Below the pieces are notes generated by a model, which made no database searches, was not told the origin of the DNA, and saw only the letters and a list, made by a program, of their open reading frames with translations. Source: Candidatus Peribacteria bacterium RIFOXYB1_FULL_54_35 (GTDB taxonomy: Bacteria > Patescibacteriota > Gracilibacteria > Peribacterales > Peribacteraceae). From it: a stretch of 64,000 nucleotides of DNA. The first letter of the stretch is position 1, and every line of letters begins with the position of its first letter. Positions 4,320 to 49,567 of the stretch are shown piece by piece. Both the position numbers and the translations under genes were made by a program. The stretch lies in NCBI GenBank assembly GCA_001787755.1, contig MFYJ01000007.1, positions 76,946 to 140,945 on the forward strand. The letters run 5' to 3'.

Positions 4320-7034
4320 TTACTGGTCAAGTTTCTCTTCCTCCGGTTCTTCCTCTTTCCTCTTCTTGAGGATTGTGTTTTCCTTTGACTTCTCTGCGAT
4401 AGGAGCTGCTGTCTTCTTCGGTTCGCTTAGTACTCCAGCACTGCGTGCAGTAGGCGCCGGTGTGTTGTCTACGGGGTCTATTGCATCGAAAGGATCCTCC
4501 GGCAGGGGCTCGTCCTTCACGGGTGCTGATGGCGGAAGAGCTGTTTGGACAGAAAGCTTCGTTGGGACGGCAGGTTTTTCCTGCGTTTCTTTTGGCGGGG
4601 GGATTGTGGTGTCTTCTTCATCCATGGGGTCTATGGCATCGAACGGATCCTCCAGTGCTTCCTCCTGCATATCTTTCTCTGCAGTCTGAAGATCCGGCGA
4701 CCGGCCGGTGGCTGGAGAATTAGCTGGTTGTTCCTTCTGCGTCCCCTTTCCTGCTACCTCGCCTCTGCTTGGCATCGTTTCTTTTCCTCCTTCCGTTCTC
4801 TCTGCTTTTGCCGTCTGCTCTTCTTCCATCTGCTTCTGGATGAGTTCTGCCTCCTTGTCGGTGCCGCTGCTGGCTCTCCTTGGTGCCTTTGCTTCCACTA
4901 TTGGGTTTTCCTCCATTGTTTTCTGCGGGTGATGCCCAAGTGCTACAGCGAGTTTTTTCTTCTTCGCCTCCAGTTTGAATTCTTCCTGAGCGTTGAGCTT
5001 CTGTTCAGGTGGTTTTCCATGCTTTACGGTCTTCTCGTCTTCTTGCTTGCTTTCCGGTTCCTCCTTCTCTGGCTCTTTCGCCTTTTCCGCCGTTCTTACT
5101 GCTTCATCTTTCTCTTTTTTTGCGGCGAGCACTTCTTCCGGCTTCGTGGTGATGACTTCCGACTCTTCGGGGCTTGCAACGACCTGTATTGCCACATGTT
5201 TGTTCCCGGCGAAGAAGAGGCCCTGTCCCACTTCAGAGTTCAGGAGGAGGTACTTCTCCCCGTCCGTGAGGTAGAAGAGCTTCTGCAGGTTGTCGACTGC
5301 TGTGGGGGACTGTTTCAGGAGTATCTGCAGCTGGGCGTTGGTGACGATGGGTTTTCCGTACGGCGAGTTCACGAAGTCTTCCACGTCCTGCGTGATGGTG
5401 GTGACGCCGAGGTAGTACTTTCGCGCGCGCTTGATGAGCCCATACAGGAACTTTGCGGAATCATCGTACTGCATGAGGTTCCATGCCTCGTCGATGACGA
5501 GGAACCGGCGTTTCATATCTGCGCGGATGCGGTTCCACAGGAAGTTGAGCACCACGTACATTGCCACAGGGCGCAGCGCATCCTCGAGATCCCGGATCTG
5601 GAAGACGACAAGCTGGTTTTCCAGTTCCACGTTCGTTTGCTTATCGAAGAGTCCCGCGTAGCTTCCTTCGGTGAACTTCATGAGAGTTTGTGCCATGTTC
5701 TCTCCGCCGTCCGTTGTCATGAGCACGTCGACGAGCTCATGCATTGTCGGCAGTTCTTTCTCCGTGTAATCCTTTGAATCCAGTGTGATGTCCTTGAGCG
5801 CGTAGGTATCCAGAATCGCTTTGTCCAGTATGCCGTCCTCTGAGGGGGTCAGTGTTCCGAGCATGAGCTTGAAGAGCCCGTGGAGCGTAATGACAGCTGC
5901 CCGGAGCACTTCACCGGGTCTTGCTTCCTCTCCACGGACTGCCTTTGGGAGATCGAAGGGGTTAATGCTGTTGCTACTCTGCAGTGACACGGGGATGAAC
6001 GTGCCGCCCACCGTTCCTGCGAGGTTCACATATTCGTTCTCCGGGTCGATGATGAATACTTCTGTTCCGAACATCATCGAACGGAGGATCTCCAGTTTCA
6101 CTGTGAAAGATTTACCTGCGCCCGATGTGGCGAATACCGTCGCATTGGCGTTGGCGAGGTCAAACCGGTCGAAAATCACCAAGCTGTCATTGTGACGGTT
6201 GATGCCGTACATAATTCCGTGGTCATCCGTGAGGTCGGAGCTCGTGAACGGGAAACTCGTCGCGAGCGGACTCGTATTCATGTTACGGGTGATCTCGATC
6301 TCATCCTGGCAGAAGGGGAGTGTGCTGATCCATGCATGTTCCATCTGGAACATTGCGGGTTTTGTCATCACGAGCTTCCCGCCGAGCAGAGATTCCAGAT
6401 CTGCTTCCAATTTCTTGAGTGTTTCCTCGTCCTCGCTGTAGACGGTGACATACATGCCGAACTGGTACAGTTTCTCCTGGCCGCGTGCGAGCAGATCCCG
6501 CAGTTCTTCCGCGTCCTGGAGTGCGGCTTCCAGGCCAGGATCACGCACAATGCCACGTTGTTCCAACATGCGGATGGACGACCGCATTTCTGCTACCTTC
6601 TTCCGCAGCATTTTCATGATCGCTTTGTTGCTAATGGGGTAGATGAAATGGGCGATGTCCATCTCTGCGTCGTAGTTGATGGTCGGGGAAAGCCAGTTCG
6701 GGAAAATATAGCTCGGCCAGTTGTATACGAAGTACGTCCGTGCATGGAGATTGTTGAGTATGACTTCATTACGCCGAACCTCCATGCCCGCCGGCGCAAT
6801 GAGATCCAGCGTTTTCTGAATCCCTTCTTCGTAGTGCTTGAGCGCGAGGAGTTCTTCTGCTGAGAGGGTACTTTTGCTCATGTGGCTCCGGGCCGAGACT
6901 GCCGCGTTCTGCGGAGCACTCTTCAGTCCCAGGAGCTCGTCGAGCGCGGCCATGAGAGAATTTTTGCGCTTCTGCTGCTTGGATTTCTTCTCCAGCTCTT
7001 TCTTGACGTTTTGTATGGGTGTAGTTTCAGCCAT
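4320..7034 (-). CDS. VirB4/TrsE-family type IV secretion ATPase with long disordered C-terminal tail
   Basis: Walker A 'ATSGAGKSFT' and Walker B-like 'RFLVIDEAWNLM'. The N-terminal region resembles Gram-positive conjugation VirB4 proteins. The last ~270 aa are E/K/P-rich and carry two EDPFDAIDP motifs. Confidence 0.8.
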   Translation of the reverse strand: MAETTPIQNVKKELEKKSKQQKRKNSLMAALDELLGLKSAPQNAAVSARSHMSKSTLSAEELLALKHYEEGIQKTLDLIAPAGMEVRRNEVILNNLHARTYFVYNWPSYIFPNWLSPTINYDAEMDIAHFIYPISNKAIMKMLRKKVAEMRSSIRMLEQRGIVRDPGLEAALQDAEELRDLLARGQEKLYQFGMYVTVYSEDEETLKKLEADLESLLGGKLVMTKPAMFQMEHAWISTLPFCQDEIEITRNMNTSPLATSFPFTSSDLTDDHGIMYGINRHNDSLVIFDRFDLANANATVFATSGAGKSFTVKLEILRSMMFGTEVFIIDPENEYVNLAGTVGGTFIPVSLQSSNSINPFDLPKAVRGEEARPGEVLRAAVITLHGLFKLMLGTLTPSEDGILDKAILDTYALKDITLDSKDYTEKELPTMHELVDVLMTTDGGENMAQTLMKFTEGSYAGLFDKQTNVELENQLVVFQIRDLEDALRPVAMYVVLNFLWNRIRADMKRRFLVIDEAWNLMQYDDSAKFLYGLIKRARKYYLGVTTITQDVEDFVNSPYGKPIVTNAQLQILLKQSPTAVDNLQKLFYLTDGEKYLLLNSEVGQGLFFAGNKHVAIQVVASPEESEVITTKPEEVLAAKKEKDEAVRTAEKAKEPEKEEPESKQEDEKTVKHGKPPEQKLNAQEEFKLEAKKKKLAVALGHHPQKTMEENPIVEAKAPRRASSGTDKEAELIQKQMEEEQTAKAERTEGGKETMPSRGEVAGKGTQKEQPANSPATGRSPDLQTAEKDMQEEALEDPFDAIDPMDEEDTTIPPPKETQEKPAVPTKLSVQTALPPSAPVKDEPLPEDPFDAIDPVDNTPAPTARSAGVLSEPKKTAAPIAEKSKENTILKKRKEEEPEEEKLDQ

Positions 7035-33881: not shown

Positions 33882-34840
33882 TGAACATCCTCCTGACCCA
33901 CGGATGGCTGCGGGGGAATCTGGGAGACTTCTGCATCAGCCGGCAGTGCATCCGTGGCCTGCGGTCTGCCATACCAAATCTCAAAATTGCGCTGATCACC
34001 GAGCCCTGCGAAGACTGGGAGGGCAAGAGGGAGATTGCTTCCCTGGTCGACAGCATGGCTGAGGAACCGTATCAGACCGACCGTTCGCACCTTTTCAGGC
34101 AGGTGGATGCAGTCATCAATGCGCCCGGCGGAGGGCTCCAGAACAGAGGCGACCACCGTGGCCCCTTCATGCTCAGGGATGCACAAATCTGCGGTGCTCT
34201 CGGGATCCCGCATTTCTTTGCCAGCCACTCGTTCCATCCGGCGTTCGATGTTTCCTCTGTGGAGCGGAGTCTGTTCATTGCGCGTGAGCCCGAGAGCTTC
34301 TCCTGGCTGAGACAGTGCGGATGCAATGCTGTCTCTGCTGCGGATCTGGCATTCCTTGAGCCCATGCCGGAAATTTCACAGGCAGACAGGGCCGCGAGGG
34401 AGAAGGTGCTGCTCTTCCTGCGGTTTGATCATTTTAAAGAGATACGGTTGGAGAAGAGGATGCTGCATCTGGATGGCCGTACGGTGGAACTGCCCGATCT
34501 TCCCCTCGTCCTCGCGTCATCGGATCCTCGCAGGGATTCTCCCCGCCTCGAGGAGCTTTCCCGCGCATGGCAAATCGGCTACGAACCGAGCATAAAGCTG
34601 GAGCATCTTCTCCAGAGCATTGCGCGATCTGCGTACGTGGTCAGTGACCGGTACCATCCCATTATCTTTGCGCACATGCTGGGTGTGCCTTTCACATTCC
34701 TTGAGCGGAAGGGGAGCCTGCGTGACCGCGGCCTCGCGAGATTACTGAGGGGGCAATCGACTGCTGCATTGAAAGATCTGGCGCGCGGGGGAATGGAGGC
34801 GCTGTGCGGTGCGTTACAGGCTCATGTCACAAGCTGCTGA
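33881..34840 (+). CDS. polysaccharide pyruvyl transferase family protein (CsaB-like)
   Basis: N-terminal GNLGD motif and C-terminal VVSDRYHPIIFAHMLGVPF, as in PS_pyruv_trans proteins. The start overlaps the preceding stop. Confidence 0.65.
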   Translation: MNILLTHGWLRGNLGDFCISRQCIRGLRSAIPNLKIALITEPCEDWEGKREIASLVDSMAEEPYQTDRSHLFRQVDAVINAPGGGLQNRGDHRGPFMLRDAQICGALGIPHFFASHSFHPAFDVSSVERSLFIAREPESFSWLRQCGCNAVSAADLAFLEPMPEISQADRAAREKVLLFLRFDHFKEIRLEKRMLHLDGRTVELPDLPLVLASSDPRRDSPRLEELSRAWQIGYEPSIKLEHLLQSIARSAYVVSDRYHPIIFAHMLGVPFTFLERKGSLRDRGLARLLRGQSTAALKDLARGGMEALCGALQAHVTSC

Positions 34841-34872
34841 TTGTTGGAGTCAGTGCTGGAATGATGCGCGTC

Positions 34873-35805
34873 CTATGCTGAGCGGGTTTTGCAGAACCGT
34901 TGCATTGTTGCTTCTCCGTAGACGGGCTGGATTGTGCTGTGATTGATATGGAAGTCATCACGACAGATTCGCTCTATTTCCCGCATGATCCTGTCACAGT
35001 CGCACACATCTCCAACCTTGATCTGCACCTTGCAGCTGAGGTGTGTTTCTGTGGGTGTCAGGTTCCAGACGTGGATGTCGCCGATGGAGGTGACTCCCCT
35101 CACCGTGCGGACGGCTTGGTCGAAGCTGTCGTATCCGAAGTCCGGTGGTGCGGATTGCAAGAACATCCGTGCCCCTTCTTTAAAGATGCCCCAGCCACTT
35201 TTCACCATGAAGAAGGCGATCAGCAGTGCGGCTGAAACATCAAAGTAGACAACGCTGAAATACTGCGAGAGGAGGCCGCTCACAATCAGGGCAGCCGAGC
35301 CGATCATGTCGTAGGTCATGCAGGCGTAGGTTCCCCGGGCGTTCAGACTGCAACAGGCATCCGTTTTCAGGAGCATTGACGATGTGAAGTTCACTGCGAG
35401 TGAGAAGCAGCCCATAACCAGGACAGTCATGCCGGCAACCGTCTCCGGCATGAGCAGCAGCCGTCCTGCCTGGAGGAGTACGACCAGAGATGACAGGATG
35501 AGCAGGCACCCTTTCGTGAAACCCGCGAGGGCATCCATGCGTCCATAGCCGAATGTGCGGTGCTCGTCCGGTTCCTGCCGCGTCTTGCGCTCACTGTAAA
35601 TACTGAACGCCAGTGCGGCAAGGTCATCCACGTTCATAAGGCCGTCTGCGAGGATGGCGGTGCTGCCCGTCACGATACTCATGACAAGCTCCGCCACCGC
35701 AAGTGCTCCATTGAGGAAGAATGACCAGATGAAACGGGCTTCAAGACTCTGCCGGCGGGAAGAATGACATGCAGGCATGCGCGTAGCATCTGTTTTGCCC
35801 TTCAC
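34873..35805 (-). CDS. cation diffusion facilitator (CDF) family metal efflux transporter
   Basis: TGSTAILADGLMNVDD, FGYGRMDALAGF, six TM helices and a C-terminal cytoplasmic domain. Confidence 0.85.
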   Translation of the reverse strand: MKGKTDATRMPACHSSRRQSLEARFIWSFFLNGALAVAELVMSIVTGSTAILADGLMNVDDLAALAFSIYSERKTRQEPDEHRTFGYGRMDALAGFTKGCLLILSSLVVLLQAGRLLLMPETVAGMTVLVMGCFSLAVNFTSSMLLKTDACCSLNARGTYACMTYDMIGSAALIVSGLLSQYFSVVYFDVSAALLIAFFMVKSGWGIFKEGARMFLQSAPPDFGYDSFDQAVRTVRGVTSIGDIHVWNLTPTETHLSCKVQIKVGDVCDCDRIMREIERICRDDFHINHSTIQPVYGEATMQRFCKTRSA

Positions 35806-35834
35806 TGCAGGGCGTGAGAACTGGTGGCCAGTGT

Positions 35835-35872
35835 ACCATGAGCGAGGCCTGAAAGGCCGGATCGGATGGTGC
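35835..35872. repeat. decayed copy of the CCATGAG-hairpin-CGGATGGTGC unit
   Basis: accatgagcgaggcctgaaaggccggatcggatggtgc has the same ends and hairpin design as the units at 36562, 37796 and 38621. Confidence 0.5.
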
Positions 35873-35957
35873 TAAAGGCCGGGGTCCTTCGCGTGTGCTC
35901 AGGACAGATTGAACCTTTCTTGCGGTGGTATGGACGGATTTGGTTTAGAATGGAGTC

Positions 35958-36515
35958 ATGCGCAACTTCCTCCTCTTTTTTGGCATCGCCTTGCTTGTTG
36001 GATGCCAGCAAAACGATGGGGACATATCTTTGGAGAAGGCTTCATCCGGAGGATCCGAAATGATGGGCGTTTCATCATCTGTCTTTTCTGGTGCCACTCT
36101 TACGATCAGACTCGAAAAAAGCACGACATCTGATTCCGATGGAACCTTTCATACGAGGGCTTTATTGCATCTCACAGGCGCACTCAATCAAACAATTGAA
36201 CTCGAGGATATTCTTGGTGAACTCATGTACGTGAGTCCCAGTGGATATGACCGCTTCAACTATGAAAACGCCGAGACTGTTGCCGTTGTAACGGCATGGT
36301 GGGCTGGTCAAGGCGAGGAAATCTACATAACACAGTTCCATGATCCTCATACGTTGACTGTCGAACATCGTTACGGTGATGAGAGCGGCGTCTGCTTTCC
36401 CCCGGGAATGATCGCTGATCTTCCGTTGTCCGGTGATGTGGAAATTGACCTCGAAAACTTCGGGCTGCCGACAGTGGAGCGTTCAAGCATCGATTTTCCG
36501 TGTACTGAACCCTGA
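35958..36515 (+). CDS. small lipoprotein, unknown function
   Basis: MRNFLLFFGIALLVGC lipobox. Lower G+C than the surroundings (one 60-nt line counted at 43%). Confidence 0.45.
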   Translation: MRNFLLFFGIALLVGCQQNDGDISLEKASSGGSEMMGVSSSVFSGATLTIRLEKSTTSDSDGTFHTRALLHLTGALNQTIELEDILGELMYVSPSGYDRFNYENAETVAVVTAWWAGQGEEIYITQFHDPHTLTVEHRYGDESGVCFPPGMIADLPLSGDVEIDLENFGLPTVERSSIDFPCTEP

Positions 36516-36561
36516 CGTGAGCAAGCATCGTGAATGCGGGCATCGCACTACGAGCATTTTT

Positions 36562-36648
36562 CGTGGTTTACCATGAGCGAGCAGCGAGCGAAGCGAACTG
36601 CGAATCGAATGGTAACACGCGTCTTCACACATCATATCTCGTGGTGAC
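36562..36648. repeat. tRNA-trailer-like repeat unit (copy flanking the CaCA gene, distal side)
   Basis: cgtggtttaccatgagcgagcagcgagcgaagcgaactgcgaatcgaatggtaacacgcg..acatcatatct aligns along its length with 37796..37880. Confidence 0.65.
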
Positions 36649-36747
36649 AGAGGCGGAGATGGTCTTCAGCAAGAACTGCGAATAACGATCTCAGCGGATG
36701 TATATGGGGTGTGTAGTCGGATCGTAGTTGAGTGTTGCCGTACTGCT

Positions 36748-37728
36748 TCAAAAGGCAATGAATATTTGAATGACAACAATACCGATGTATCCACCAAGAA
36801 GAATTGCCCCCTCCAGTCGCGAGATCGCCTGTTTCGTGAGTAGAAAGAAAAAGAGGAGAAAACTCATGACGATGAGCGCGGGTAATTCAAATGAAAGCCA
36901 ACGATGTGAGATTGTCACAGGTGAGAGCATTGCGGAAATGCCGAGTGTCACAAGAAGAGTAAAGACGTTCGAGCCGAGCGTTTCGGACACGGCGATTTCA
37001 CCCATGCCTTTCTTCGTTGCCTGATACGCAGCGATGATGTTGGGGAGCGATGGACCTAGCGCTCCAAGCGTCAGACCGACGATCAATTCGTCAATGCCGA
37101 TGTTTCCCGCAAACCAGACGAGCTGCATCGAAAATATCTGCGTACCAATCAGCAGCAATGCCGTCCCAAGGATGAACGACAGCCAGCCAATTTTCATCTT
37201 GCCAAAGTTGAAGCCGATGAAATCCAGTTCCATCTCGATCTCATGCAAGTCCAGACTGCGTTCTTTCTGTGACTGCTGGCGTTCTTGTAGAACGATGTTG
37301 ATGATGTACGGAATGAACAGCAGGAACAAAGCCCCGCCCTCCAATCGAGTGATCTCCCCGCTCGCGCCGATGGAGAAGATAAGAATAGGGATGATGATCG
37401 AGAAAATGCCATCACGCAGGATGAGGGTTTTTTTGACTTTTAGAGGTCGTATGATTGCGCAGAATCCCGTCATGAGACCGATGTTGCAGATGATGGAGCC
37501 GAGAACGACTCCCAAGCTGATAGCGGGATATCCCTGCATCGTTGTCAGAACGGCAACGAGGATTTCAGGCAAACTCACGGCAACCGAGACGAGAATCAGC
37601 CCAACCGCCACTCCCGACACGCCGAGCTTCCGCGCAAGAGGGATGAGGGAATCAGTCAACCAGTCAGACCCCTTTCCCATCAGAACAATACCGAGAATAA
37701 CGAGAAGGAGAGGAGCGACGAAGGACAT
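36748..37728 (-). CDS. Ca2+/Na+ antiporter (CaCA/YrbG family), paralogue 1
   Basis: Two internal alpha-repeat halves, GSSLPE-like 'AVSLPEILVAV' and 'GPSLPNIIAA', and about 10 TM helices. Somewhat lower G+C than paralogue 2. Confidence 0.8.
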   Translation of the reverse strand: MSFVAPLLLVILGIVLMGKGSDWLTDSLIPLARKLGVSGVAVGLILVSVAVSLPEILVAVLTTMQGYPAISLGVVLGSIICNIGLMTGFCAIIRPLKVKKTLILRDGIFSIIIPILIFSIGASGEITRLEGGALFLLFIPYIINIVLQERQQSQKERSLDLHEIEMELDFIGFNFGKMKIGWLSFILGTALLLIGTQIFSMQLVWFAGNIGIDELIVGLTLGALGPSLPNIIAAYQATKKGMGEIAVSETLGSNVFTLLVTLGISAMLSPVTISHRWLSFELPALIVMSFLLFFFLLTKQAISRLEGAILLGGYIGIVVIQIFIAF

Positions 37729-37795
37729 CGGTGGCTATTGTATCACTTTCATTCATCTCGAATCTCATTGTCATTCGATTCGCCAGTGAGAGAAT

Positions 37796-37880
37796 CGTGA
37801 TTTGCCATGAGTGAATCCCGAGCGTAGTCGAGGGGCGAATCGAATGGTGCCACGCGACCTCAAACATCATATCTTGTCAC
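37796..37880. repeat. tRNA 3'-end plus trailer repeat unit (between the CaCA and HEPN-like genes)
   Basis: cgaatggtgccacgcg matches cgaatggtgccacggg at the intact tRNA-Met 3' end/trailer junction in 15 of 16 positions. The remainder aligns with 36562..36648. Confidence 0.7.
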
Positions 37881-38466
37881 TACTTCCATTGAGCTTGTTT
37901 GAGTGAATGGGTTCAGCTCCGGAAGAAATTAGAGAATTACAAATAAAGGAATCGATCTTCTTGGTTTCTTCGATAAATTCTTTTAATTGGCTCGGTTTTA
38001 TTCTACTAAATTGAATATGATATTTGTTTGGAGATTTTTTCCTCCTCATAATCTGCACGCCACCATCGGGTTGGCTCTTACCAACCAAGTTCGAATGAAC
38101 TAATTTGTTTCTTATTTCGCCAATTCTTTCAGCATAGTTACACACAGCCTCCATTGTGTTTTGATCACAAAGCTCCGACACTTTATTTAGTCGACGAAGT
38201 CCTCCAAGAATTTCACTGAATCTAACCTCGCATAAAATAGCTTCAATTGATGGAAATGAGCTTGGGCCAAAGTATCTGCTTATCACAGATATAATTGTAT
38301 TTTCCAAATGCTGGAAAGCACAGATGAATTTCCCAATTAGTGCAAAAACTCCATCATCGATTGTGTCATTAATAGGTACAGCAGTCCCGTGCTTAACAAT
38401 CTTATTAAATTTTTTGCCTTCTTTTGATTCACGAAGTTTCCAGTCTTCGACTACAGGCCAAGTCAT
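37867..38466 (-). CDS. AT-rich orphan ORF, HEPN-like (Rx4H motif) putative RNase/abortive-infection-type protein
   Basis: 199 aa, predicted helical. 'IGEIRNKLVHSN' contains the HEPN R-x4-H signature. 60-nt lines counted at 30-35% G+C. It starts 30 nt downstream of the disrupted tRNA on the same strand. Confidence 0.5.
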   Translation of the reverse strand: MTWPVVEDWKLRESKEGKKFNKIVKHGTAVPINDTIDDGVFALIGKFICAFQHLENTIISVISRYFGPSSFPSIEAILCEVRFSEILGGLRRLNKVSELCDQNTMEAVCNYAERIGEIRNKLVHSNLVGKSQPDGGVQIMRRKKSPNKYHIQFSRIKPSQLKEFIEETKKIDSFICNSLISSGAEPIHSNKLNGSSDKI

Positions 38467-38495
38467 ATCAGTGAAAAGCAGTATGAGGGCGTGTA

Positions 38496-38620
38496 TGGTG
38501 CCACGGGCCGGGATTGAACCGGCGACCCCGGGCTTATGAGTCCTGTGCGGCTTCGCCGCAGTGTTTTTTCTATTGCGCGTCTCGGCTCCGCCTCGACGCG
38601 GCCAACTGAGCTACCGTGGC
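38496..38620 (-). pseudogene. tRNA-Met(CAT)-like gene with 58 nt of hairpin sequence replacing 9 nt of the D-arm/anticodon-stem region
   Basis: The first 15 nt and last 48 nt are identical to the intact copy. The middle, CCGCGTCGAGGCGGAGCCGAGACGCGCAATAGAAAAAACACTGCGGCGAAGCCGCACA, cannot close a normal D stem. Confidence 0.6.
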
Positions 38621-38673
38621 CCGAGCCGCGAAGCGGCGAGGACCATGAGCGAGCGCCGAAGGCGCGAGTCGAA
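38621..38673. repeat. trailer hairpin unit of tRNA-Met (reference copy of the CCATGAG..CGAATGG unit)
   Basis: gaccatgagcgagcgccgaaggcgcgagtcgaa lies immediately 3' of the tRNA on the minus strand, with a GCGCC/GGCGC stem. Confidence 0.65.
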
Positions 38674-38749
38674 TGGTGCCACGGGCCGGGATTGAACCGG
38701 CGACCCCGGGCTTATGAGTCCCGTGCTCTACCATCTGAGCTACCGTGGC
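38674..38749 (-). tRNA. tRNA-Met/Ile2-type (anticodon CAT), 76 nt with encoded CCA
   Basis: GCCACGG-TA-GCTC-AGATGGTA-GAGC-A-CGGGA-CTCATAA-GCCCG-GGGTC-GCCGG-TTCAATC-CCGGC-CCGTGGC-ACCA folds as a cloverleaf. Position 31:39 is A:G. I cannot decide between initiator, elongator and lysidine-Ile identity by eye. Confidence 0.85.
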
Positions 38750-38799
38750 ATGACCGACGTTGAGTGGGAGAAAAAGATCGACAACCGAGCATGGAGACT

Positions 38800-38884
38800 T
38801 TATCACGCCTCGCTTCGCTCGGCTGGGCATCTGCTTGTCGGCCGTAGTCCGCCTAAGGCGGACGAAGGCAGAAGCTACCGTGGC
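38800..38884 (-). repeat. 12-nt tRNA 5'-end fragment (GCCACGGTAGCT) followed by GC hairpins
   Basis: agctaccgtggc at 38873..38884 equals the 5' end of both tRNA-Met copies. It is followed on the minus strand by GTCCGCCTTAGGCGGAC and further hairpin sequence. Confidence 0.5.
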
Positions 38885-38920
38885 GGATCTTCGAAACTGG
38901 CTCACGCAAGCCTATCAAAT

Positions 38921-39280
38921 TCACTCTTCCCGCAACAGGAAAAAGAGTGCCAAGGCACTTGTGAGAATCGCAATATCCCGGGCGGCAATGTCGTTCCAGC
39001 CGGTCTGTGTGAGCACTCCTGCTATGTATGCGCCCGCTGCGAGAGACGCGATGCGTTGGATATTCCGTAGTTGTGTGACCAACATCACAGCTATGGCAAT
39101 TTCCAGTACCCCAAGCACTTGGAGCCAGATATGTGCGGGAATTCCCAGAAATCCACCCATCCAGCGCGGAATCCAGCCGATCCAGATGAGGGGGTGGAAG
39201 AACTTTTCCAGGCCGAAAGAGGCGAATACAAGCGCTATGCCTGCCGAAAGGAGAACGACGGGTGTGCGGATTTGCCTCAT
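38921..39280 (-). CDS. small 4-TM membrane protein (DoxX-like)
   Basis: 119 aa with four hydrophobic helices and a layout like DoxX-family proteins. Weak call. Confidence 0.4.
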   Translation of the reverse strand: MRQIRTPVVLLSAGIALVFASFGLEKFFHPLIWIGWIPRWMGGFLGIPAHIWLQVLGVLEIAIAVMLVTQLRNIQRIASLAAGAYIAGVLTQTGWNDIAARDIAILTSALALFFLLREE

Positions 39281-39322
39281 GGAGCGAGTATAGCGTACGA
39301 TGCGCCCCTATTTCTTTCCTTC

Positions 39323-39790
39323 ATGACTATGAAAAAAGTTCTGTTCGTGTTTGGCGTATTACCTCTTCTGTTTCTCGTGGCGTGCGTACCCTCGCAGCCG
39401 GAGCAAGATGAGATGATGGATGATGAGATGATGATGGAAGAGGAAGAGAAGATGGTGGAGGATGGAATGATGATGGATGAAGAAGGGATGATGGAGGAAG
39501 AGCAGGCAGGCAGTCCGCGCGTCATCCGCGTGACTGCGGAGAACTGGATGTTCACTCCTGCAGCTATTACCGTGAAGAAAGGCGAACGAGTGCAGATTTC
39601 TCTGGAGGGTCTCACCGGTTTGCACGGCTATTCTGTTCCTGATCTGGGCATTAACCAGGTGGTAGAGGCCGGTCAGACCGTTACCTTCGATCTGCCGACA
39701 GACGAGCCGGGAATCTATAATGTGCGTTGTTCCGTCCCGTGCGGCGAGGGTCACAGGGATATGACGGGTCAGATCATCATAGAGGAGTGA
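39323..39790 (+). CDS. lipoprotein with Met/Glu-rich linker and CuA-type cupredoxin domain
   Basis: Lipobox LVAC. Linker DEMMDDEMMMEEEEKMVEDGMMMDEEGMMEEE. The domain ends in H..(x)..CSVPCGEGHRDM, matching the C-x-x-x-C-G-x-x-H-x-x-M CuA ligand pattern of CoxII-like cupredoxins. Confidence 0.65.
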   Translation: MTMKKVLFVFGVLPLLFLVACVPSQPEQDEMMDDEMMMEEEEKMVEDGMMMDEEGMMEEEQAGSPRVIRVTAENWMFTPAAITVKKGERVQISLEGLTGLHGYSVPDLGINQVVEAGQTVTFDLPTDEPGIYNVRCSVPCGEGHRDMTGQIIIEE

Positions 39791-40368
39791 TGCGCAGGTA
39801 TTGCGTGCCGTTGCTGGCGCTGCTGCTTTTCTCTGCGTGCAACGGAGAGGCGCCTTCGCAGGTGCAGAATCCCGATCCCAATCACCTCCATGCGGATTTC
39901 GCCGTCTGGTATGAGGGGGAGAAGCTGGATTTCAGCGGGGAGGAGTACCAGTCCGGGTCTCTGGAAGAGGAGAGTGATCCCGGCCACGGCGGCCACGAGC
40001 ATCTGCACCCCTACGTCCATCTGCATGACGGCGTCGGCCACGTCATTCATGTGCACAAACCGGGGTTCACACTGCGGGAGTTCTTCGATTCGCTCGGGCA
40101 GCTTGATTTCTTCACGCAGGGGCACATCTGGACCATGTTCATCAACGGGCAGGAGGAAGAGTTCACTCTCGACTACGAGATACGCGATCTTGATCAGATT
40201 TTTCTCACCACTTCCGCCGGGAGCGCGAAGGTACTCGATGAACTCAGCAGGATGACAGATGATGCCTGCCAGTACTCACGGACTTGTCCTGAAAGGGGTG
40301 ATCCGCCCAGGGAGGATTGTGTGTCTGATCCTTCCGTCCCTTGCGTCGTTCCTCCTGAGGATCTTTGA
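39790..40368 (+). CDS. His-rich lipoprotein, unknown function (putative metal binding)
   Basis: Lipobox FSAC. HLHADF and GHGGHEHLHPYVHLHDGVGHVIHVH. The start overlaps the cupredoxin stop (TGATG). Confidence 0.5.
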   Translation: MRRYCVPLLALLLFSACNGEAPSQVQNPDPNHLHADFAVWYEGEKLDFSGEEYQSGSLEEESDPGHGGHEHLHPYVHLHDGVGHVIHVHKPGFTLREFFDSLGQLDFFTQGHIWTMFINGQEEEFTLDYEIRDLDQIFLTTSAGSAKVLDELSRMTDDACQYSRTCPERGDPPREDCVSDPSVPCVVPPEDL

Positions 40369-40369
40369 G

Positions 40370-40446
40370 GTTTGCTCGTTGACTCGTTCGCTCGTTGCTC
40401 GTTTTGAACCAGTAACGAGCAAACCAGCGAACGGGCAAACGAAGCG
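40370..40446. repeat. GCTCGTT-word hairpin, copy 1
   Basis: gtttgctcgttgactcgttcgctcgttgctcgtt / aacgagcaaaccagcgaacgggcaaacgaagc. About 18 of 20 loop-proximal positions pair. It begins 2 nt after the stop codon. Confidence 0.7.
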
Positions 40447-40484
40447 GTAGGCGTCGCCAGTATGTTGTAAACGCTATGTGAATA

Positions 40485-41498
40485 TCATCCCCGCCAGGCG
40501 ATGACGGCGACATAGGCGATGTAGCACGCGAGGAGCACCCCGCCTTCCCATCTCTTTATGATGTAATCTTTCTCCTGCTTCCACCAGAAAAACAGCCGGT
40601 GGTGGAGTTTCCCGTTGTGGACGATGAAGAAGAGCAGCGCCGACGCGAACACCACCATGAGAAGGTCAATATTGAGATCCGGTTGGAAGGGGAGCGGCTT
40701 AATGAGGGCGCTCACTCCGAGGATCCAGAAGATGTTGAAGATGTTGCTCCCGACGACGTTCCCCACCGCGATGTCCGGTTTGTTCTTGATGGCCGCGACG
40801 ACCGAGGTCATGAGTTCGGGGAGAGACGTGCCGACTGCCACGATTGTGAGGCCGATGAGTGCCTCGCTCACACCGAGAGCGAGGGCGATGTCCTGCGCGG
40901 TTTCCACGCAGAAATGTCCTCCCACTACGAGACCGGCAAGTCCCATGACCACGAGGAGCACGGCCTGCCAGAGGGACATGACCGTTTTTGTGATCCCTTC
41001 CTCCTGTTCTCCATGCCGGATGCCGAACGTGTAGTAGAGGAAGATGAGGAAGAAGCAAAGGAAGACAAGACCATCGCCCCTGCCGAGTTCCGAAAGCTGG
41101 TACCCGTCGATCAGCGCGTCATTTGCCATGAAGTAGAGCACGATGCCCGCGAGCAGGCTGAGGGGAATCTCCTTCAGTATGGTGCTCTTCTGTACTGCTA
41201 TGGGCGCGATGATCGCGGTAATGCCAAGGATGAGCAGGATGTTGGCGATGTTGCTGCCGACGACGTTTCCAATGGCAATGTCTGCATTCCCCCGGATGCT
41301 GGCGACGATGTTCACGATGAGCTCCGGGGTGGACGTGCCGAAAGCGACGACTGTCAGGCCGATGGCGAGGTCAGATATGCGGAGCCTGTGTGCCAAGGAA
41401 GACGCGCCCTCCACCAACCAGTTGGCGCCTTTCAAAAGGAGGAGTACGCCGATAGCGAACAGAATGAGTGTGAAGATGATTGGCATTGCGGGCAGCAT
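40485..41498 (-). CDS. Ca2+/Na+ antiporter (CaCA/YrbG family), paralogue 2
   Basis: GTSTPELIVNIVA and GTSLPELMTSVVA alpha-repeats, and about 10 TM helices. Confidence 0.8.
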   Translation of the reverse strand: MLPAMPIIFTLILFAIGVLLLLKGANWLVEGASSLAHRLRISDLAIGLTVVAFGTSTPELIVNIVASIRGNADIAIGNVVGSNIANILLILGITAIIAPIAVQKSTILKEIPLSLLAGIVLYFMANDALIDGYQLSELGRGDGLVFLCFFLIFLYYTFGIRHGEQEEGITKTVMSLWQAVLLVVMGLAGLVVGGHFCVETAQDIALALGVSEALIGLTIVAVGTSLPELMTSVVAAIKNKPDIAVGNVVGSNIFNIFWILGVSALIKPLPFQPDLNIDLLMVVFASALLFFIVHNGKLHHRLFFWWKQEKDYIIKRWEGGVLLACYIAYVAVIAWRG

Positions 41499-48292: not shown

Positions 48293-48379
48293 GCCGAGGT
48301 GGCGGAACTGGTAGACGCGCACGACTCAAAATCGTGTGGGAGCAATCCCGTGAGAGTTCAAGTCTCTCCCCCGGCACCA
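48293..48379 (+). tRNA. tRNA-Leu (anticodon CAA), 87 nt with long variable arm and encoded CCA
   Basis: GCCGAGG..CACGA-CTCAAAA-TCGTG..long variable arm..GAGAG-TTCAAGT-CTCTC-CCCCGGC-ACCA. Confidence 0.9.
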
Positions 48380-48396
48380 GAATTCAGGAATTCATT

Positions 48397-49002
48397 ATGC
48401 ATAAAGAATATGTAAATGAGGTCAGAAGTTTTAAGAAGCTACTAGAAGCGCTGGAACCATATGTAAAGAAATTCGAACTGATGTTGAAGGAGAAGAAATT
48501 CCCAGGCTGTTCTTTAAGACCTATAGAGGTTTGGGGAAACTGGTTAATTTGCGCTGTCATTCGCAGATATATTTCGGGAGAAGTCACATTTGCTGACGGT
48601 CCGAGTGGTGATGGGATAATCGTCGACAAACGAGATGGTAGTACACGTCAAACAGAACATGTATCAGCAACAGATAACCCCTTTTCACCTAGAGATTTAC
48701 CGAGTGGCGAAAGGAGAATAATTGAAGCTATTGAGAAGAAAATTGCGTTAGGTTCCAACTATGCAGAAGGCAGTATTCTTATTGCTTTTTTTGATGGTGC
48801 AGGAGAGTGGTATAGAAATAAGGTGAGAGAAGCTATTGGTAAACATAATTTCCACAAGATTTACTTGATAGGATTATTGACCAGAGACGCGAATGGATTT
48901 GCATACTCTGTGACAGAGCTGCATGAGAATAATTCAATAACCTTTAAGGTACAGATTAACCCCGATTTTTCTCATTGGTCAGTTTCTAGGTACCCAAACT
49001 AA
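48397..49002 (+). CDS. AT-rich orphan protein, unknown function
   Basis: 201 aa. It starts 18 nt after the tRNA-Leu CCA on the same strand. One 60-nt line was counted at 38% G+C. No confident motif; the possible nuclease-like GDGIIVD..TEHV is speculative. Confidence 0.5.
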   Translation: MHKEYVNEVRSFKKLLEALEPYVKKFELMLKEKKFPGCSLRPIEVWGNWLICAVIRRYISGEVTFADGPSGDGIIVDKRDGSTRQTEHVSATDNPFSPRDLPSGERRIIEAIEKKIALGSNYAEGSILIAFFDGAGEWYRNKVREAIGKHNFHKIYLIGLLTRDANGFAYSVTELHENNSITFKVQINPDFSHWSVSRYPN

Positions 49003-49015
49003 CTGACTGAAAGTC

Positions 49016-49567
49016 TCACGGCCCCCACTGATCGTGAATAATCCCGACGAGGTACCACCCTCCATCAAACTCTTCCCATACGAGCCGCAGGCTCACCCAG
49101 TCCATCCCTCCGTACTGCGGATCGAACCCCGGGAAGTAGTACTCCACGATCTGGCTGTTCGGGTACGCATCAGACGCGTTATCTATGGAGCTCCCGTGCT
49201 CCATCTTCCGGTTCCACGTCACTTCTTTTGCCTTGGCGTAGTCGTGGTCGTAGACAAACTGGTCGTAGTAATCGGCGAAGGTGAGGTAGATGGGGGAGCC
49301 GGAGCCGTCGTGATCGCCCCACCGGTGCAGGGTGGAATTTCCCATGGCGTCTTCTATGTCCTTGGCGTAGAAGAAGATGTTCCTCCCTTTGTCCACGTAG
49401 GTGTACGGAGTGAAGGTCACGCCTTTCACGGGGTGCACGAGGCTCGCGAGCGTATCCATATCTTTCTCTTTGAGTGCTTCTATGGCTGTCTTTGCGTTCT
49501 TCTCCACGGGGCTGCCGCAGCCGGCCAAGAGGGTGAGGGCGAGGAGGGGGAGGAGGAGTTTCTTCAT
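49016..49567 (-). CDS. lipoprotein, unknown function
   Basis: MKKLLLPLLALTLLAGC lipobox. No recognisable catalytic motif. Confidence 0.5.
   Translation of the reverse strand: MKKLLLPLLALTLLAGCGSPVEKNAKTAIEALKEKDMDTLASLVHPVKGVTFTPYTYVDKGRNIFFYAKDIEDAMGNSTLHRWGDHDGSGSPIYLTFADYYDQFVYDHDYAKAKEVTWNRKMEHGSSIDNASDAYPNSQIVEYYFPGFDPQYGGMDWVSLRLVWEEFDGGWYLVGIIHDQWGP

Follow-up and report, generated by a model that had tools for sequence, protein, structure and literature searches.

Displaced tRNA-Met ends and hairpin units in a Peribacteraceae genome: a putative stack of small insertions without their own recombinase

How do single genes of foreign composition come to lie behind a tRNA gene, each bounded by pieces of that tRNA, where no recombinase is encoded? 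The question is raised by positions 35820-38690 of a 64 kb stretch of DNA (the window) from a Peribacteraceae bacterium of the candidate phyla radiation (CPR), known from a groundwater metagenome-assembled genome (MAG). Here an intact tRNA-Met(CAT) gene is followed by displaced copies of its own 3′ end, by four copies of a short hairpin element, referred to as the unit, and by three cargo genes. The segment is read as four or more small insertions, stacked at the tRNA-Met 3′ end and since decayed, which lack a recombinase of their own and were either made by or decorated with the unit family, with nuclease-driven copying as the favoured cause; this reading is given an even chance of being right. 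An earlier reading made from the letters alone (the sequence-only reading) had described the footprint of repeated insertion at this 3′ end, and the tRNA-end pieces at every junction together with the variability among relatives bear it out. The features concerned are listed below, outward from the tRNA leader; loci from other assemblies carry L numbers.

38873..38884, minus strand: 12-nt copy of the tRNA 5′ end, upstream of the tRNA in a hairpin-rich 123-nt leader (repeat analysis; same place in L254).
38674..38749, minus strand: intact tRNA-Met(CAT) with encoded CCA (ARAGORN; Rfam RF00005, 65.5 bits).
38642..38677, minus strand: unit A, whose outer stem ACCAU/AUGGU borrows the tRNA's own ACCA (repeat, pattern and folding analyses).
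38618..38644, minus strand: hairpin hp3, GGTCC-TC-GCCGC-TTC-GCGGC-TC-GGGCC, a lineage-specific continuation of the element (comparison with relatives).
38496..38620, minus strand: displaced tRNA-Met copy 2, in which 19 nt from the 5′ end are separated by two GC hairpins (a 56-nt insert) from a 3′ part of 48 nt exact, or 54 nt at 98% (repeat analysis, blastn).
37867..38466, minus strand: orf199, an open reading frame (ORF) of 199 aa with a G+C content (GC) of 0.37 (0.370, z -9.4), possibly an HEPN-type RNase (ORF call, motif, weak profile matches).
37845..37859, minus strand: tRNA 3′-end copy GGTCGCGTGGCACCA, the right boundary of the orf199 islet (blastn, 19/20 to the tRNA end plus unit).
37760..37848, minus strand: unit B, a TTCGATTCG / TCACTCATGG variant with a decayed hairpin, d box GGCGAATCGAATG and a partial inverted box (pattern match).
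36748..37728, minus strand: CaCA (Na+/Ca2+ exchanger family) gene, GC 0.506, z -3.1 (Pfam PF01699, BLASTP).
36570..36648, minus strand: unit C; ahead of it a degenerate copy of the tRNA end, GACGCGTGTTACCA, and a stretch similar to the final orf199 codons (pattern, repeat and folding analyses).
35958..36515, plus strand: lipoprotein-like ORF of 185 aa, signal peptide with Cys, GC 0.491, z -3.8 (ORF call).
35866..35915, minus strand: displaced tRNA-Met fragment from T-loop to CCA, GGTTCAATC...CCCGGCCTTTAGCACCA, ahead of unit D (sequence comparison).
35835..35870, minus strand: unit D, decayed, with a TCCGATCC box, a GGCCT-TTC-AGGCC hairpin and a perfect 12-nt CTCGCTCATGGT box (repeat and folding analyses).
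35822-35829, minus strand: weak fifth tRNA-end copy GGCCACCA, 13 nt past unit D and just before the start of a CDF gene (found by eye, about 7/10 identity to the previous copy, without a chance test).

The order outward from the tRNA is unit A with its truncated module, copy 2 with a unit-free trailer, orf199, GGTCGCGTGGCACCA with unit B, and the CaCA gene; past the CaCA gene stand the degenerate repeat with unit C, the inverted lipoprotein ORF, the split tRNA-Met fragment with unit D, the weak fifth copy and the CDF gene. A piece of the tRNA 3′ end is found at every junction, measuring 48-54 nt in copy 2, 10-15 nt at unit B, ~8 nt at unit C and ~25 nt, split, at unit D; at most junctions a unit is present as well. 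Insertions at the tRNA 3′ end are thus bounded in the window by direct repeats of the tRNA 3′ segment, as is the case for tRNA-targeted islands. The tRNA itself, placed at 38674..38749 on the minus strand by the sequence-only reading, was recovered by both ARAGORN and Rfam RF00005. That reading had also picked out a disrupted tRNA copy at 38496-38620, the 3′ 54 nt of which proved 98% identical, and a 12-nt copy of the 5′ end at 38873-38884, which the repeat analysis found again. The match of copy B to the tRNA end, first counted at 15/16, was confirmed and is 19/20 by blastn, and GGTCGCGTGGCACCA is orthologous to GGTCGGTGACACCA in L254 and GGTTGGTATCACCA in L260. Directly after copy 2 comes the unit-free trailer ACCATACACGCC; it begins ACCATAC, as does the unit-free trailer of L133. 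Apart from the fragment ahead of unit D, GGTTCAATC is found in the window only in the tRNA and in copy 2, three occurrences in all. The fragment ahead of unit D (35866..35915) is split by an inverted mini-unit at 35885-35904 (TCC-TTCG..CTCA-GGA on the plus strand).

The units of the window share the general form ACCA followed directly by TTCGAYTC-hairpin-TCRCTCATGG. In unit A, read in the direction of the tRNA, ACCA runs directly into the TTCGACTCG box, a GCGCC-TTC-GGCGC hairpin and the CTCGCTCATGG box. Units A, C and D fold identically: the outer stem is ACCAU/AUGGU, there is a helix CGA/UCG, the CUC triplets remain unpaired, and the inner hairpins are unrelated in sequence. The pattern CCATGAG-N15-40-CGAATGG occurs three times in 64 kb (36571, 37805 and 38643), at most 2.1 kb apart, where 0.04 are expected and 0/100 shuffles reach three; CTCGCTCATGG also occurs three times in the window against 0.03 expected. 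The four copies noted earlier at tRNA-Met are accounted for by these three pattern matches and by the decayed unit D, and they cluster at one place only within the 64 kb. Unit D, first placed at 35835..35872, has kept both a perfect CTCGCTCATGGT box and a perfect hairpin. The variant box of unit B is compensated by an inverted repeat that is perfect over 13 nt (37772-37784 / 37834-37846). The claim that the unit at 36562..36648 aligns over about 85 nt with the copy at 37796 was upheld, 66/84 positions being identical. Because this 79% identity over 84 nt includes ~30 nt upstream of the tRNA-like part, units B and C appear to derive from each other or from a common junction type. At unit A the element breaks off past hp3; the hp3 hairpin recurs after units behind tRNA-Val (L101), tRNA-Arg (L107) and tRNA-Met (L100, L028). 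The 7 kb from 34000 to 41000 are 100% identical in five independent assemblies, and an assembly artefact is thereby ruled out.

The unit belongs to a family that extends well beyond this locus. One genome per species (GTDB) was scanned for ACCATYCGA-N12-42-TCRCTCATGG, which gave at least 119 loci, with 88 strict units among the matches listed. Metagenomes were searched for the minimal unit TTCGACTCGCTTCGCTCGCTCA, in which the CCA is not required, and gave at least 120 loci, with 126 copies among the matches listed; all counts of units below refer to these listed matches. In the genomes, 57/88 units start exactly at the ACCA of a tRNA or tmRNA called by ARAGORN. Eleven tRNA isotypes carry the unit (Leu, Val, Phe, Arg, Tyr, Ile, Pro, Lys, Met, Glu and Ala), as does tmRNA, and the hosts comprise Peribacteria, Peregrinibacteria, other Patescibacteria, Saccharibacteria, Acidobacteriota (Vicinamibacterales), Armatimonadota, Nitrospirota, Binatia and uncultured Gammaproteobacteria. 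The trailer hairpin had been taken for an att site duplicated at the tRNA-Met locus, a view that fails since the family sits behind so many tRNA and tmRNA isotypes and in so many phyla.

In the consensus, a 3-5-bp outer stem that uses the tRNA CCA encloses the two boxes TTCGAYTC and TCRCTCA, between which stands a perfect but freely variable hairpin. CTC after TTCGA is near-universal, though it lay outside the search pattern, and the length and sequence of the hairpin differ even between orthologous tRNAs. Past the forward unit the full element contains a lineage-specific hairpin, the box GAGTCGAATG (the reverse complement of the first box) and an inverted unit CCCTGAGCGAG-hairpin-CGAGTCGAAGGG; an inverted second unit is present in 35/88. 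Many units stand in conserved synteny, with unit-bearing tRNAs followed by tig-clpP or thrS in Acidobacteriota and Armatimonadota, and with units behind tmRNA-type ..CTCCACCA ends followed by infC-rplT in two Patescibacteria and related loci (L023, L044). Because such housekeeping tRNAs keep their neighbours, the unit by itself does not mark an island.

Without the CCA requirement the picture widens. Of the 126 metagenome copies, only 12 have a tRNA 3′ end at a distance of 300 nt or less. Their outer triplets are CCC/GGG (49) or TCC/GGA (29), and also CAC/GTG, TTC/GAA, CGT/ACG and others; the CCC/GGG and TCC/GGA subtypes are dispersed away from tRNAs, and in the CCA/TGG subtype the tRNA's own CCA makes up half of the outer stem. 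Four metagenome copies abut a tRNA, and three of these tRNAs have no encoded CCA, with CAC/GTG in the same position. For the tRNAs without encoded CCA in L171, L216 and L244, the unit begins 3 nt past the discriminator and the outer stem CAC/GTG replaces CCA/TGG. The three flanking base pairs covary among 112 distinct sequences selected by their core (score 0.304 vs 0.148), a value reached in 0/500 shuffles, and slid controls score lower. Hairpin stems are near-purely Watson-Crick (12 G.U in 589 pairs), and units away from tRNAs have no clear orientation bias relative to neighbouring genes, ORF calls being noisy in GC-rich DNA. The near-pure stems, the turnover of hairpins between orthologous sites and the lack of clear orientation bias speak for a DNA-level palindromic element, of the kind of repetitive extragenic palindromes (REPs) or miniature inverted-repeat transposable elements.

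The likeness to REPs, to the bacterial interspersed mosaic elements and to REPINs (REP doublets forming hairpins) is considerable (PMC3116915, PMC2817692, PMC3733652): all are short imperfect palindromes of 30-50 nt, non-coding, with conserved boxes and a variable top. As with REPs, REPINs and their associated tyrosine transposases (RAYTs), units often form inverted pairs or mosaics, and a single small nuclease-type gene is flanked by repeats. Unlike these systems, the unit consensus has no GTAG or CGTC tag, and the gene is of the GIY-YIG type (PF01541) instead of an HUH Y1 transposase. REPs are lineage-specific, whereas the unit boxes are common to several phyla; in the window there is a single cluster in 64 kb, the family being dispersed in metagenomes, and one subtype is tied precisely to the tRNA CCA end. 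The sequence-only reading had named an ordinary REP element, scattered at sites unrelated to tRNAs, as the finding that would speak against it. A dispersed REP-like family does exist, but the tRNA-end match is real in other copies and the relatives are polymorphic.

The unit matched no Rfam family in the 35-40 kb region of the window and 16 related loci (E<=1), only tRNA and tmRNA being found. Phage origin was considered and rejected, since 2.9 million viral contigs gave only three matches. No description of the element, or of a linkage between UPF0213 proteins and tRNAs, was found in Rfam or the searchable literature, and absence there is no proof of novelty. Recurrent tails follow the unit core in L134-L253 (GGGCAGG/GGGCAAG, GGGTGAG, GGATGAC). 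In GC-rich genomes the core falls within long spurious ORFs on both strands, and it is probably a source of false 'hypothetical proteins'.

Discrete insertions that duplicate a tRNA end are found at other loci. The smallest are free of ORFs, range from 79 to 250 bp and lie between direct repeats of the tRNA end that are exact over 17-20 nt. They include a 79-nt element within a 17-nt repeat at tRNA-Phe (L039), an element within an 18-nt repeat at tRNA-Lys (L016; 28 nt if a mini-unit in the distal T-loop is allowed) and one within a 20-nt repeat at tRNA-Arg (L021). Because these repeat-flanked elements hold little besides units, the unit-bearing DNA is itself the inserted thing. Larger, cargo-bearing examples are a ~31-nt repeat with few mismatches around 1.47 kb in L043, behind an apparent tmRNA 3′ end ..CTCCACCA at which ARAGORN called no gene; two cassettes bounded by 18-nt and 13-nt repeats at tRNA-Tyr (L064); and a cassette of a GIY-YIG gene and a small membrane ORF between two unit modules (L091). 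In an Acidobacteriota MAG (L122, 5222-5617), three identical tandem 102-bp blocks lie between two tRNA-Arg genes, each block composed of 12 nt of the tRNA-Arg end, a forward unit and an inverted unit. L016 parallels unit D of the window, with a mini-unit inside the T-loop of the distal tRNA-Lys fragment (L016, reverse complement, ~5770-5800). Such mini-units, inverted and of the form TCC-TGAGC..CGAA-GGA, were seen in the T-loops of displaced tRNA 3′ fragments in L016 and at 35885-35904 of the window. It was also observed that the first unit box, TTCGACTC, is a perfect T-loop consensus.

The orthologous tRNA-Met locus was compared among relatives, as had been proposed with the sequence-only reading, and differs from one relative to the next; cargo, where there is any, lies between direct repeats of the tRNA 3′ end:

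L133 (flanking protein 58% identical): behind tRNA-Met, no unit and no islet.
L254: tRNA-Met, directly an orf199 homologue (61% identity, GC 0.37), then GGTCGGTGACACCA (11/14 to the tRNA end); no unit.
L260: intact tRNA-Met, TTTCCTTCT, disrupted second copy, orf199, GGTTGGTATCACCA, a minimal unit and a further tRNA-end copy.
L100: tRNA-Met, full element, a 30%-identical orf199 relative and four other ORFs.
L028: tRNA-Met, element, GIY-YIG remnant, lipoprotein gene, 55-nt tRNA fragment, unit-free trailer.
L114: tRNA-Met, element, intact GIY-YIG gene.

From the differing or absent cargo in L133, L254, L260, L258, L100, L028 and L114, the tRNA-Met locus is a species-level insertion hotspot. The site of unit A holds TTTCCTTCT and no unit in L260, and the unit past the orf199 repeat is present in the window and L260 and absent in L254. 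Because L260 lacks unit A, and L254 has the islet without a unit, units and cargo are gained and lost independently at orthologous sites. Presence/absence variants within the strain, which the sequence-only reading had also proposed to look for, were not found, the five assemblies being identical. The disrupted tRNA-Met copy is kept in L260 (58-190) with the same architecture, beside an orf199 homologue of 51% identity. Two GC hairpins replace the segment from D-arm to anticodon, similar in shape and changed in sequence (CGCGTC..GACGCG vs ACCGTC..GACGGT). In both the window and L260 the disrupted copy stands directly upstream of the HEPN-like gene, and it could be a functional tRNA-like RNA or decoy instead of debris.

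The only gene recurrently associated with units is an ORF of 84 aa encoding a predicted GIY-YIG nuclease. It runs in the direction of the tRNA, 60-140 nt past the element, and accompanies 17/88 genome units (within 900 nt) and 12/126 metagenome units. The protein scores 46.7 bits against PF01541 and comes nearest, among PDB structures, to the UPF0213 proteins 1zg2 and 1ywl; the family exceeds 100 clusters at 90% identity, mostly from Peregrinibacteria and other Patescibacteria. Sampling that started from the protein led back to the same arrangement, 3/3 informative long-contig contexts consisting of tRNA, unit(s) and GIY-YIG gene (tRNA-Val, tRNA-Leu(CAG) and tRNA-Leu(GAG)). At the orthologous tRNA-Met the gene is present in L114, L258 and L259, with a remnant in L028; in L258 and L259 it is a related 78-aa version, situated between a duplicated 22-nt tRNA-Met 5′ fragment and the intact tRNA-Met. 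Because a GIY-YIG gene sits in that position in L258, the leader of the window tRNA-Met may be the scar of a lost nuclease gene. Within this leader (38750-38890; L254 5815-5904) the opening 12-nt copy of the tRNA 5′ end was seen to pair with a downstream CTACGG.

The sequence-only reading had found no integrase or transposase in cis, and Pfam likewise detected no recombinase domain among ~40 window ORFs scanned. All-against-all clustering of 560 ORFs from 85 loci returned lineage synteny only and no recurrent integrase near units; representatives of the largest clusters were identified with Pfam as trigger factor, ClpP, threonyl-tRNA synthetase, IF3 and L20.

Nuclease-induced break repair is the mechanism that we infer and favour, unproven as it is. 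The GIY-YIG nuclease would cut near the T-loop or the 3′ end of a tRNA gene, and the break would be healed by copying from an element-bearing donor, whose left homology arm would be the tRNA itself and whose right arm would be the piece of tRNA 3′ end that the element carries on its far side. Such copying would regenerate an intact tRNA and displace the old 3′ end outward, with no need for an integrase. Genes between the element and the distal tRNA fragment, here the HEPN-like gene, the CaCA exchanger and the lipoprotein, would be carried along. At the window locus the nuclease gene would since have been lost, as the life cycle of a homing gene would predict. The model would produce the observed order of intact tRNA, element, displaced 3′ fragment and old trailer; it would also allow for variable repeat lengths and could operate in any genome with the cognate tRNA.

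This corresponds to the action of SegB in T-even phages (PMC13096335, PMC2330249). SegB of T4/T6 is a GIY-YIG nuclease encoded among tRNA genes which cuts tRNA-containing DNA and drives microhomology duplications with tRNA pieces (PMC13096335); it promotes co-conversion as well as microhomology duplications with partial tRNA copies (PMC2330249, PMC13096335). Like free-standing homing genes of this kind, the present nuclease gene lies beside tRNA genes with no recombinase (PMC2330249, PMC13096335). Unlike SegB, the proteins are catalytic domains of 78-90 aa of the UPF0213 (YhbQ) type, without a DNA-binding domain, and their nuclease activity is predicted. They are chromosomal (in CPR, Acidobacteriota and other phyla) and not phage-borne, the viral scan having given three matches only. 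They are also paired with a conserved hairpin module, and the window has no such gene. GIY-YIG genes are among those predicted to be horizontally exported by Patescibacteria (PMC12455944).

A wider proposal is tentative and seems to us possible, with the balance against it. The hairpin unit and the 84-aa UPF0213 GIY-YIG protein might together constitute an undescribed class of mobile element, which would home to the 3′ end of any tRNA or tmRNA by its own tRNA-derived arm, regenerate the tRNA without integrase or transposase, and, through repeated homing, build hairpin-bounded arrays of single-gene cassettes in the ultra-small genomes of the CPR and in soil phyla.

Several points weigh against the reading of the locus as nuclease-driven insertions of the unit family. 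The window contains no GIY-YIG gene or remnant (tblastn), and a role for the nuclease here draws on the relatives alone. About 80-90% of units have no GIY-YIG gene nearby. GIY-YIG nucleases are not recombinases, and to our knowledge no cleavage site or activity has been described for the UPF0213-type subfamily. The islet of L254 has tRNA-end repeats without a unit, so some insertions need none. The ~30 nt common to units B and C upstream of the tRNA-like part equally fit homologous recombination between older junctions. The identity of the five assemblies, and the same gene order in the 24 longest contigs per query protein, give no sign of ongoing mobility. The genome scans are biased by their search pattern (the CCA/TGG form). 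Finally, the repeats mostly begin in or near the T-arm (L039, L016, L021, L064 and unit D of the window), which also fits a classical tyrosine integrase acting in trans; exceptions are L043, with its tmRNA end, and copy 2 of the window, which begins in the anticodon stem.

This last point belongs to the strongest rival, in which the locus holds classical tRNA-targeted islets made by a tyrosine integrase that acts in trans or has since been deleted. Integrase-less, cis-mobilisable remnants would stand in tandem, and the units would be passive REP-like repeats settling at the CCA with no role in gene movement. tRNA genes are classic landing pads of integrase-borne islands, and the T-arm and the anticodon stem are the two classical locations of integrase crossover. 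Tandem accretion and integrase-less cis-mobilisable elements (CIMEs) are among the known forms of tRNA-targeted islands, with Williams 2002 and the work on integrative and conjugative elements (ICEs) and CIMEs of Streptococcus thermophilus as background. The present insertions resemble such islands in several ways. They lie at a tRNA or tmRNA 3′ end, the intact gene being regenerated; their direct repeats are the tRNA 3′ segment (T-loop or anticodon stem to CCA); their cargo is of foreign composition and variable content among relatives; and several elements occur at one tRNA. In keeping with an integrase, most repeats span the T-arm region to the CCA, and the 48-55-nt repeats of copy 2 and L028 start at the anticodon stem. 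The unit-free orf199 islet of L254, with its 11/14 tRNA-end repeat, the gain and loss of units independently of cargo, and the 12/126 units near tRNA ends when no CCA is required also agree with units that play no part. Unlike tRNA-targeted islands, none of the elements examined here contains an integrase; they are tiny (79 bp to ~3 kb) with single-gene cargo, their tRNA-proximal end is a structured hairpin module conserved across phyla, and the only recurrent gene is GIY-YIG. The absence of an integrase from the ~40 window ORFs scanned, and of a recurrent one near the 85 unit-bearing loci, tells against this explanation, as do a sole recurrent gene of GIY-YIG and not integrase type and the existence of 79-250-bp ORF-free elements that are little but units between exact tRNA-end repeats. 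It is considered unlikely.

Integron-like cassettes come next, and are quite improbable. Here the folded unit would be an analogue of attC and the tRNA end of attI, and a structure-specific recombinase encoded elsewhere would add single-gene cassettes serially. The likeness to integron cassettes, including clusters of attC sites lacking integron-integrases (CALINs), lies in single genes between structured sites, with a different version of the site for each cassette; in the window, L064 and L091 each repeated copy has its own hairpin. The conserved outer boxes, the unpaired or bulged CUC triplets and the freely variable central hairpin recall attC, and the outer stem covaries. However, there is no IntI-type gene among the ~40 ORFs scanned, nor an attI, a Pc promoter or an attC consensus, the boxes being TTCGAYTC and TCRCTCA instead of RYYYAAC / GTTRRRY. 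Gene orientation is mixed, the lipoprotein ORF running opposite to the other two genes; lone units stand behind housekeeping tRNAs without cassettes, and islets without units exist. An attC site functions in a strand-specific manner, whereas the present hairpins are as well paired on one strand as on the other. The cassette-array likeness suggested by the sequence-only reading does not extend to integrons, which were rejected on the lack of IntI and of an attC consensus and by the mixed orientation.

It is very unlikely that the unit serves as an RNA element in the 3′ trailer of the pre-tRNA, whether for processing, for termination or for self-cleavage as a ribozyme of the hepatitis delta virus (HDV)-like theta kind, with its copies as by-products of local tRNA-end duplication: it does abut the CCA exactly, or lies 3 nt past the discriminator where no CCA is encoded, always on the tRNA strand, its boxes a:d and b:e could form a pseudoknot of HDV-like topology, and theta ribozymes directly 3′ of phage tRNAs are a precedent for a structured element that starts exactly at the tRNA 3′ end (PMC10879173), but no Rfam family matched, the d-e joint varies (UG, UGA, UGG, UGGUG; 2-5 nt) without the conserved catalytic C or the fixed J4/2 junction of those ribozymes, the host tRNAs encode CCA, G.U pairs are near-absent, hairpin length and sequence turn over completely between orthologous tRNAs, presence varies between close relatives, and most members lie far from tRNAs with no clear orientation bias to their neighbours (noisy ORF calls). 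A theta or other HDV-like ribozyme was rejected on the grounds of the variable junction without conserved C, the topology itself being possible.

The cargo genes of the proposed stack have the composition expected of islands. The 44 other ORFs of the window have a mean GC of 0.572 (sd 0.022). Lower GC in the cargo genes, noted earlier, is confirmed at z -3.1 to -9.4 against these ORFs, and the ORF list agrees that there is one gene per interval between unit copies. No ORFs of the window have a lower GC than the three cargo ORFs and one ORF behind tRNA-Leu; two marks of an island, an atypical composition and a presence that varies among relatives, are found together. The ACCA of a tRNA-Met, or of a gene resembling tRNA-Met, always precedes an orf199 homologue by 20-30 nt. 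The label 'HEPN-like' given to orf199 by the sequence-only reading gains from an R119-N-x3-H124 motif that is invariant in seven homologues; the profile matches (HEPN_Apea, E 0.016, for the L100 homologue, and a PADLOC Cas13a model, E 0.014) are both weak and sub-threshold. The HEPN assignment is suggestive. An AlphaFold2 model of orf199 was unusable (predicted confidence score, pLDDT, 41). The CaCA gene was correctly assigned to its family (PF01699), but not as a paralogue: it is 29% identical (BLASTP) to the core CaCA gene at 40485-41498, which rules out recent paralogy and makes the island gene a foreign version. The 185-aa lipoprotein-like ORF has no match in Pfam or NCBIfam.

Further cargo genes of arrays at tRNA ends code for a ParE toxin, accompanied by a small partner, and for a retropepsin-like aspartyl protease, which has a small ORF upstream of it (L260 898-1388; L064 2009-2580). 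Such content is typically accessory or of the addiction type. A second single low-GC ORF lies in the window behind tRNA-Leu(CAA) (region 48293-49030). It occupies 48397-49002, encodes 201 aa at a GC of 0.39 (z -8.3) and starts 18 nt after the CCA; it has no Pfam, NCBIfam or PADLOC match, and there is no hairpin unit at the site. A tRNA-end repeat around this ORF was sought and dismissed, a weak 7-nt echo (AAGTCTC) past the ORF being all that was found. The only conjugation- or secretion-like gene noticed in the window encodes a 904-aa VirB4/TraC-type ATPase (TraG P-loop, AAA_10) at 4320-7034, ~30 kb away. At 39401-39496 an 18- or 21-nt periodic repeat encodes the Met/Glu/Asp-rich N-terminal stretch of a cupredoxin-domain protein.

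The footprint of an integrase-borne island is seen here without a recombinase and in elements as small as 79 bp. The tRNA-proximal module is common to lineages from Patescibacteria through Acidobacteriota, and its sole recurrent partner is a catalytic-domain-only GIY-YIG protein of the uncharacterised UPF0213 family. If the nuclease does not drive insertion, an unannotated repeat family remains, which produces spurious ORFs and marks recombination-prone tRNA flanks in MAGs. If the elements are indeed homing elements, this would be the first biological role for UPF0213/YhbQ. If the nuclease drives insertion, the system would give a widespread 'hypothetical' family a testable function, would be a chromosomal counterpart to the relationship between SegB and tRNA genes in T-even phages, could yield a compact system for targeted insertion, and would represent a new route of gene acquisition in the streamlined genomes of the CPR.

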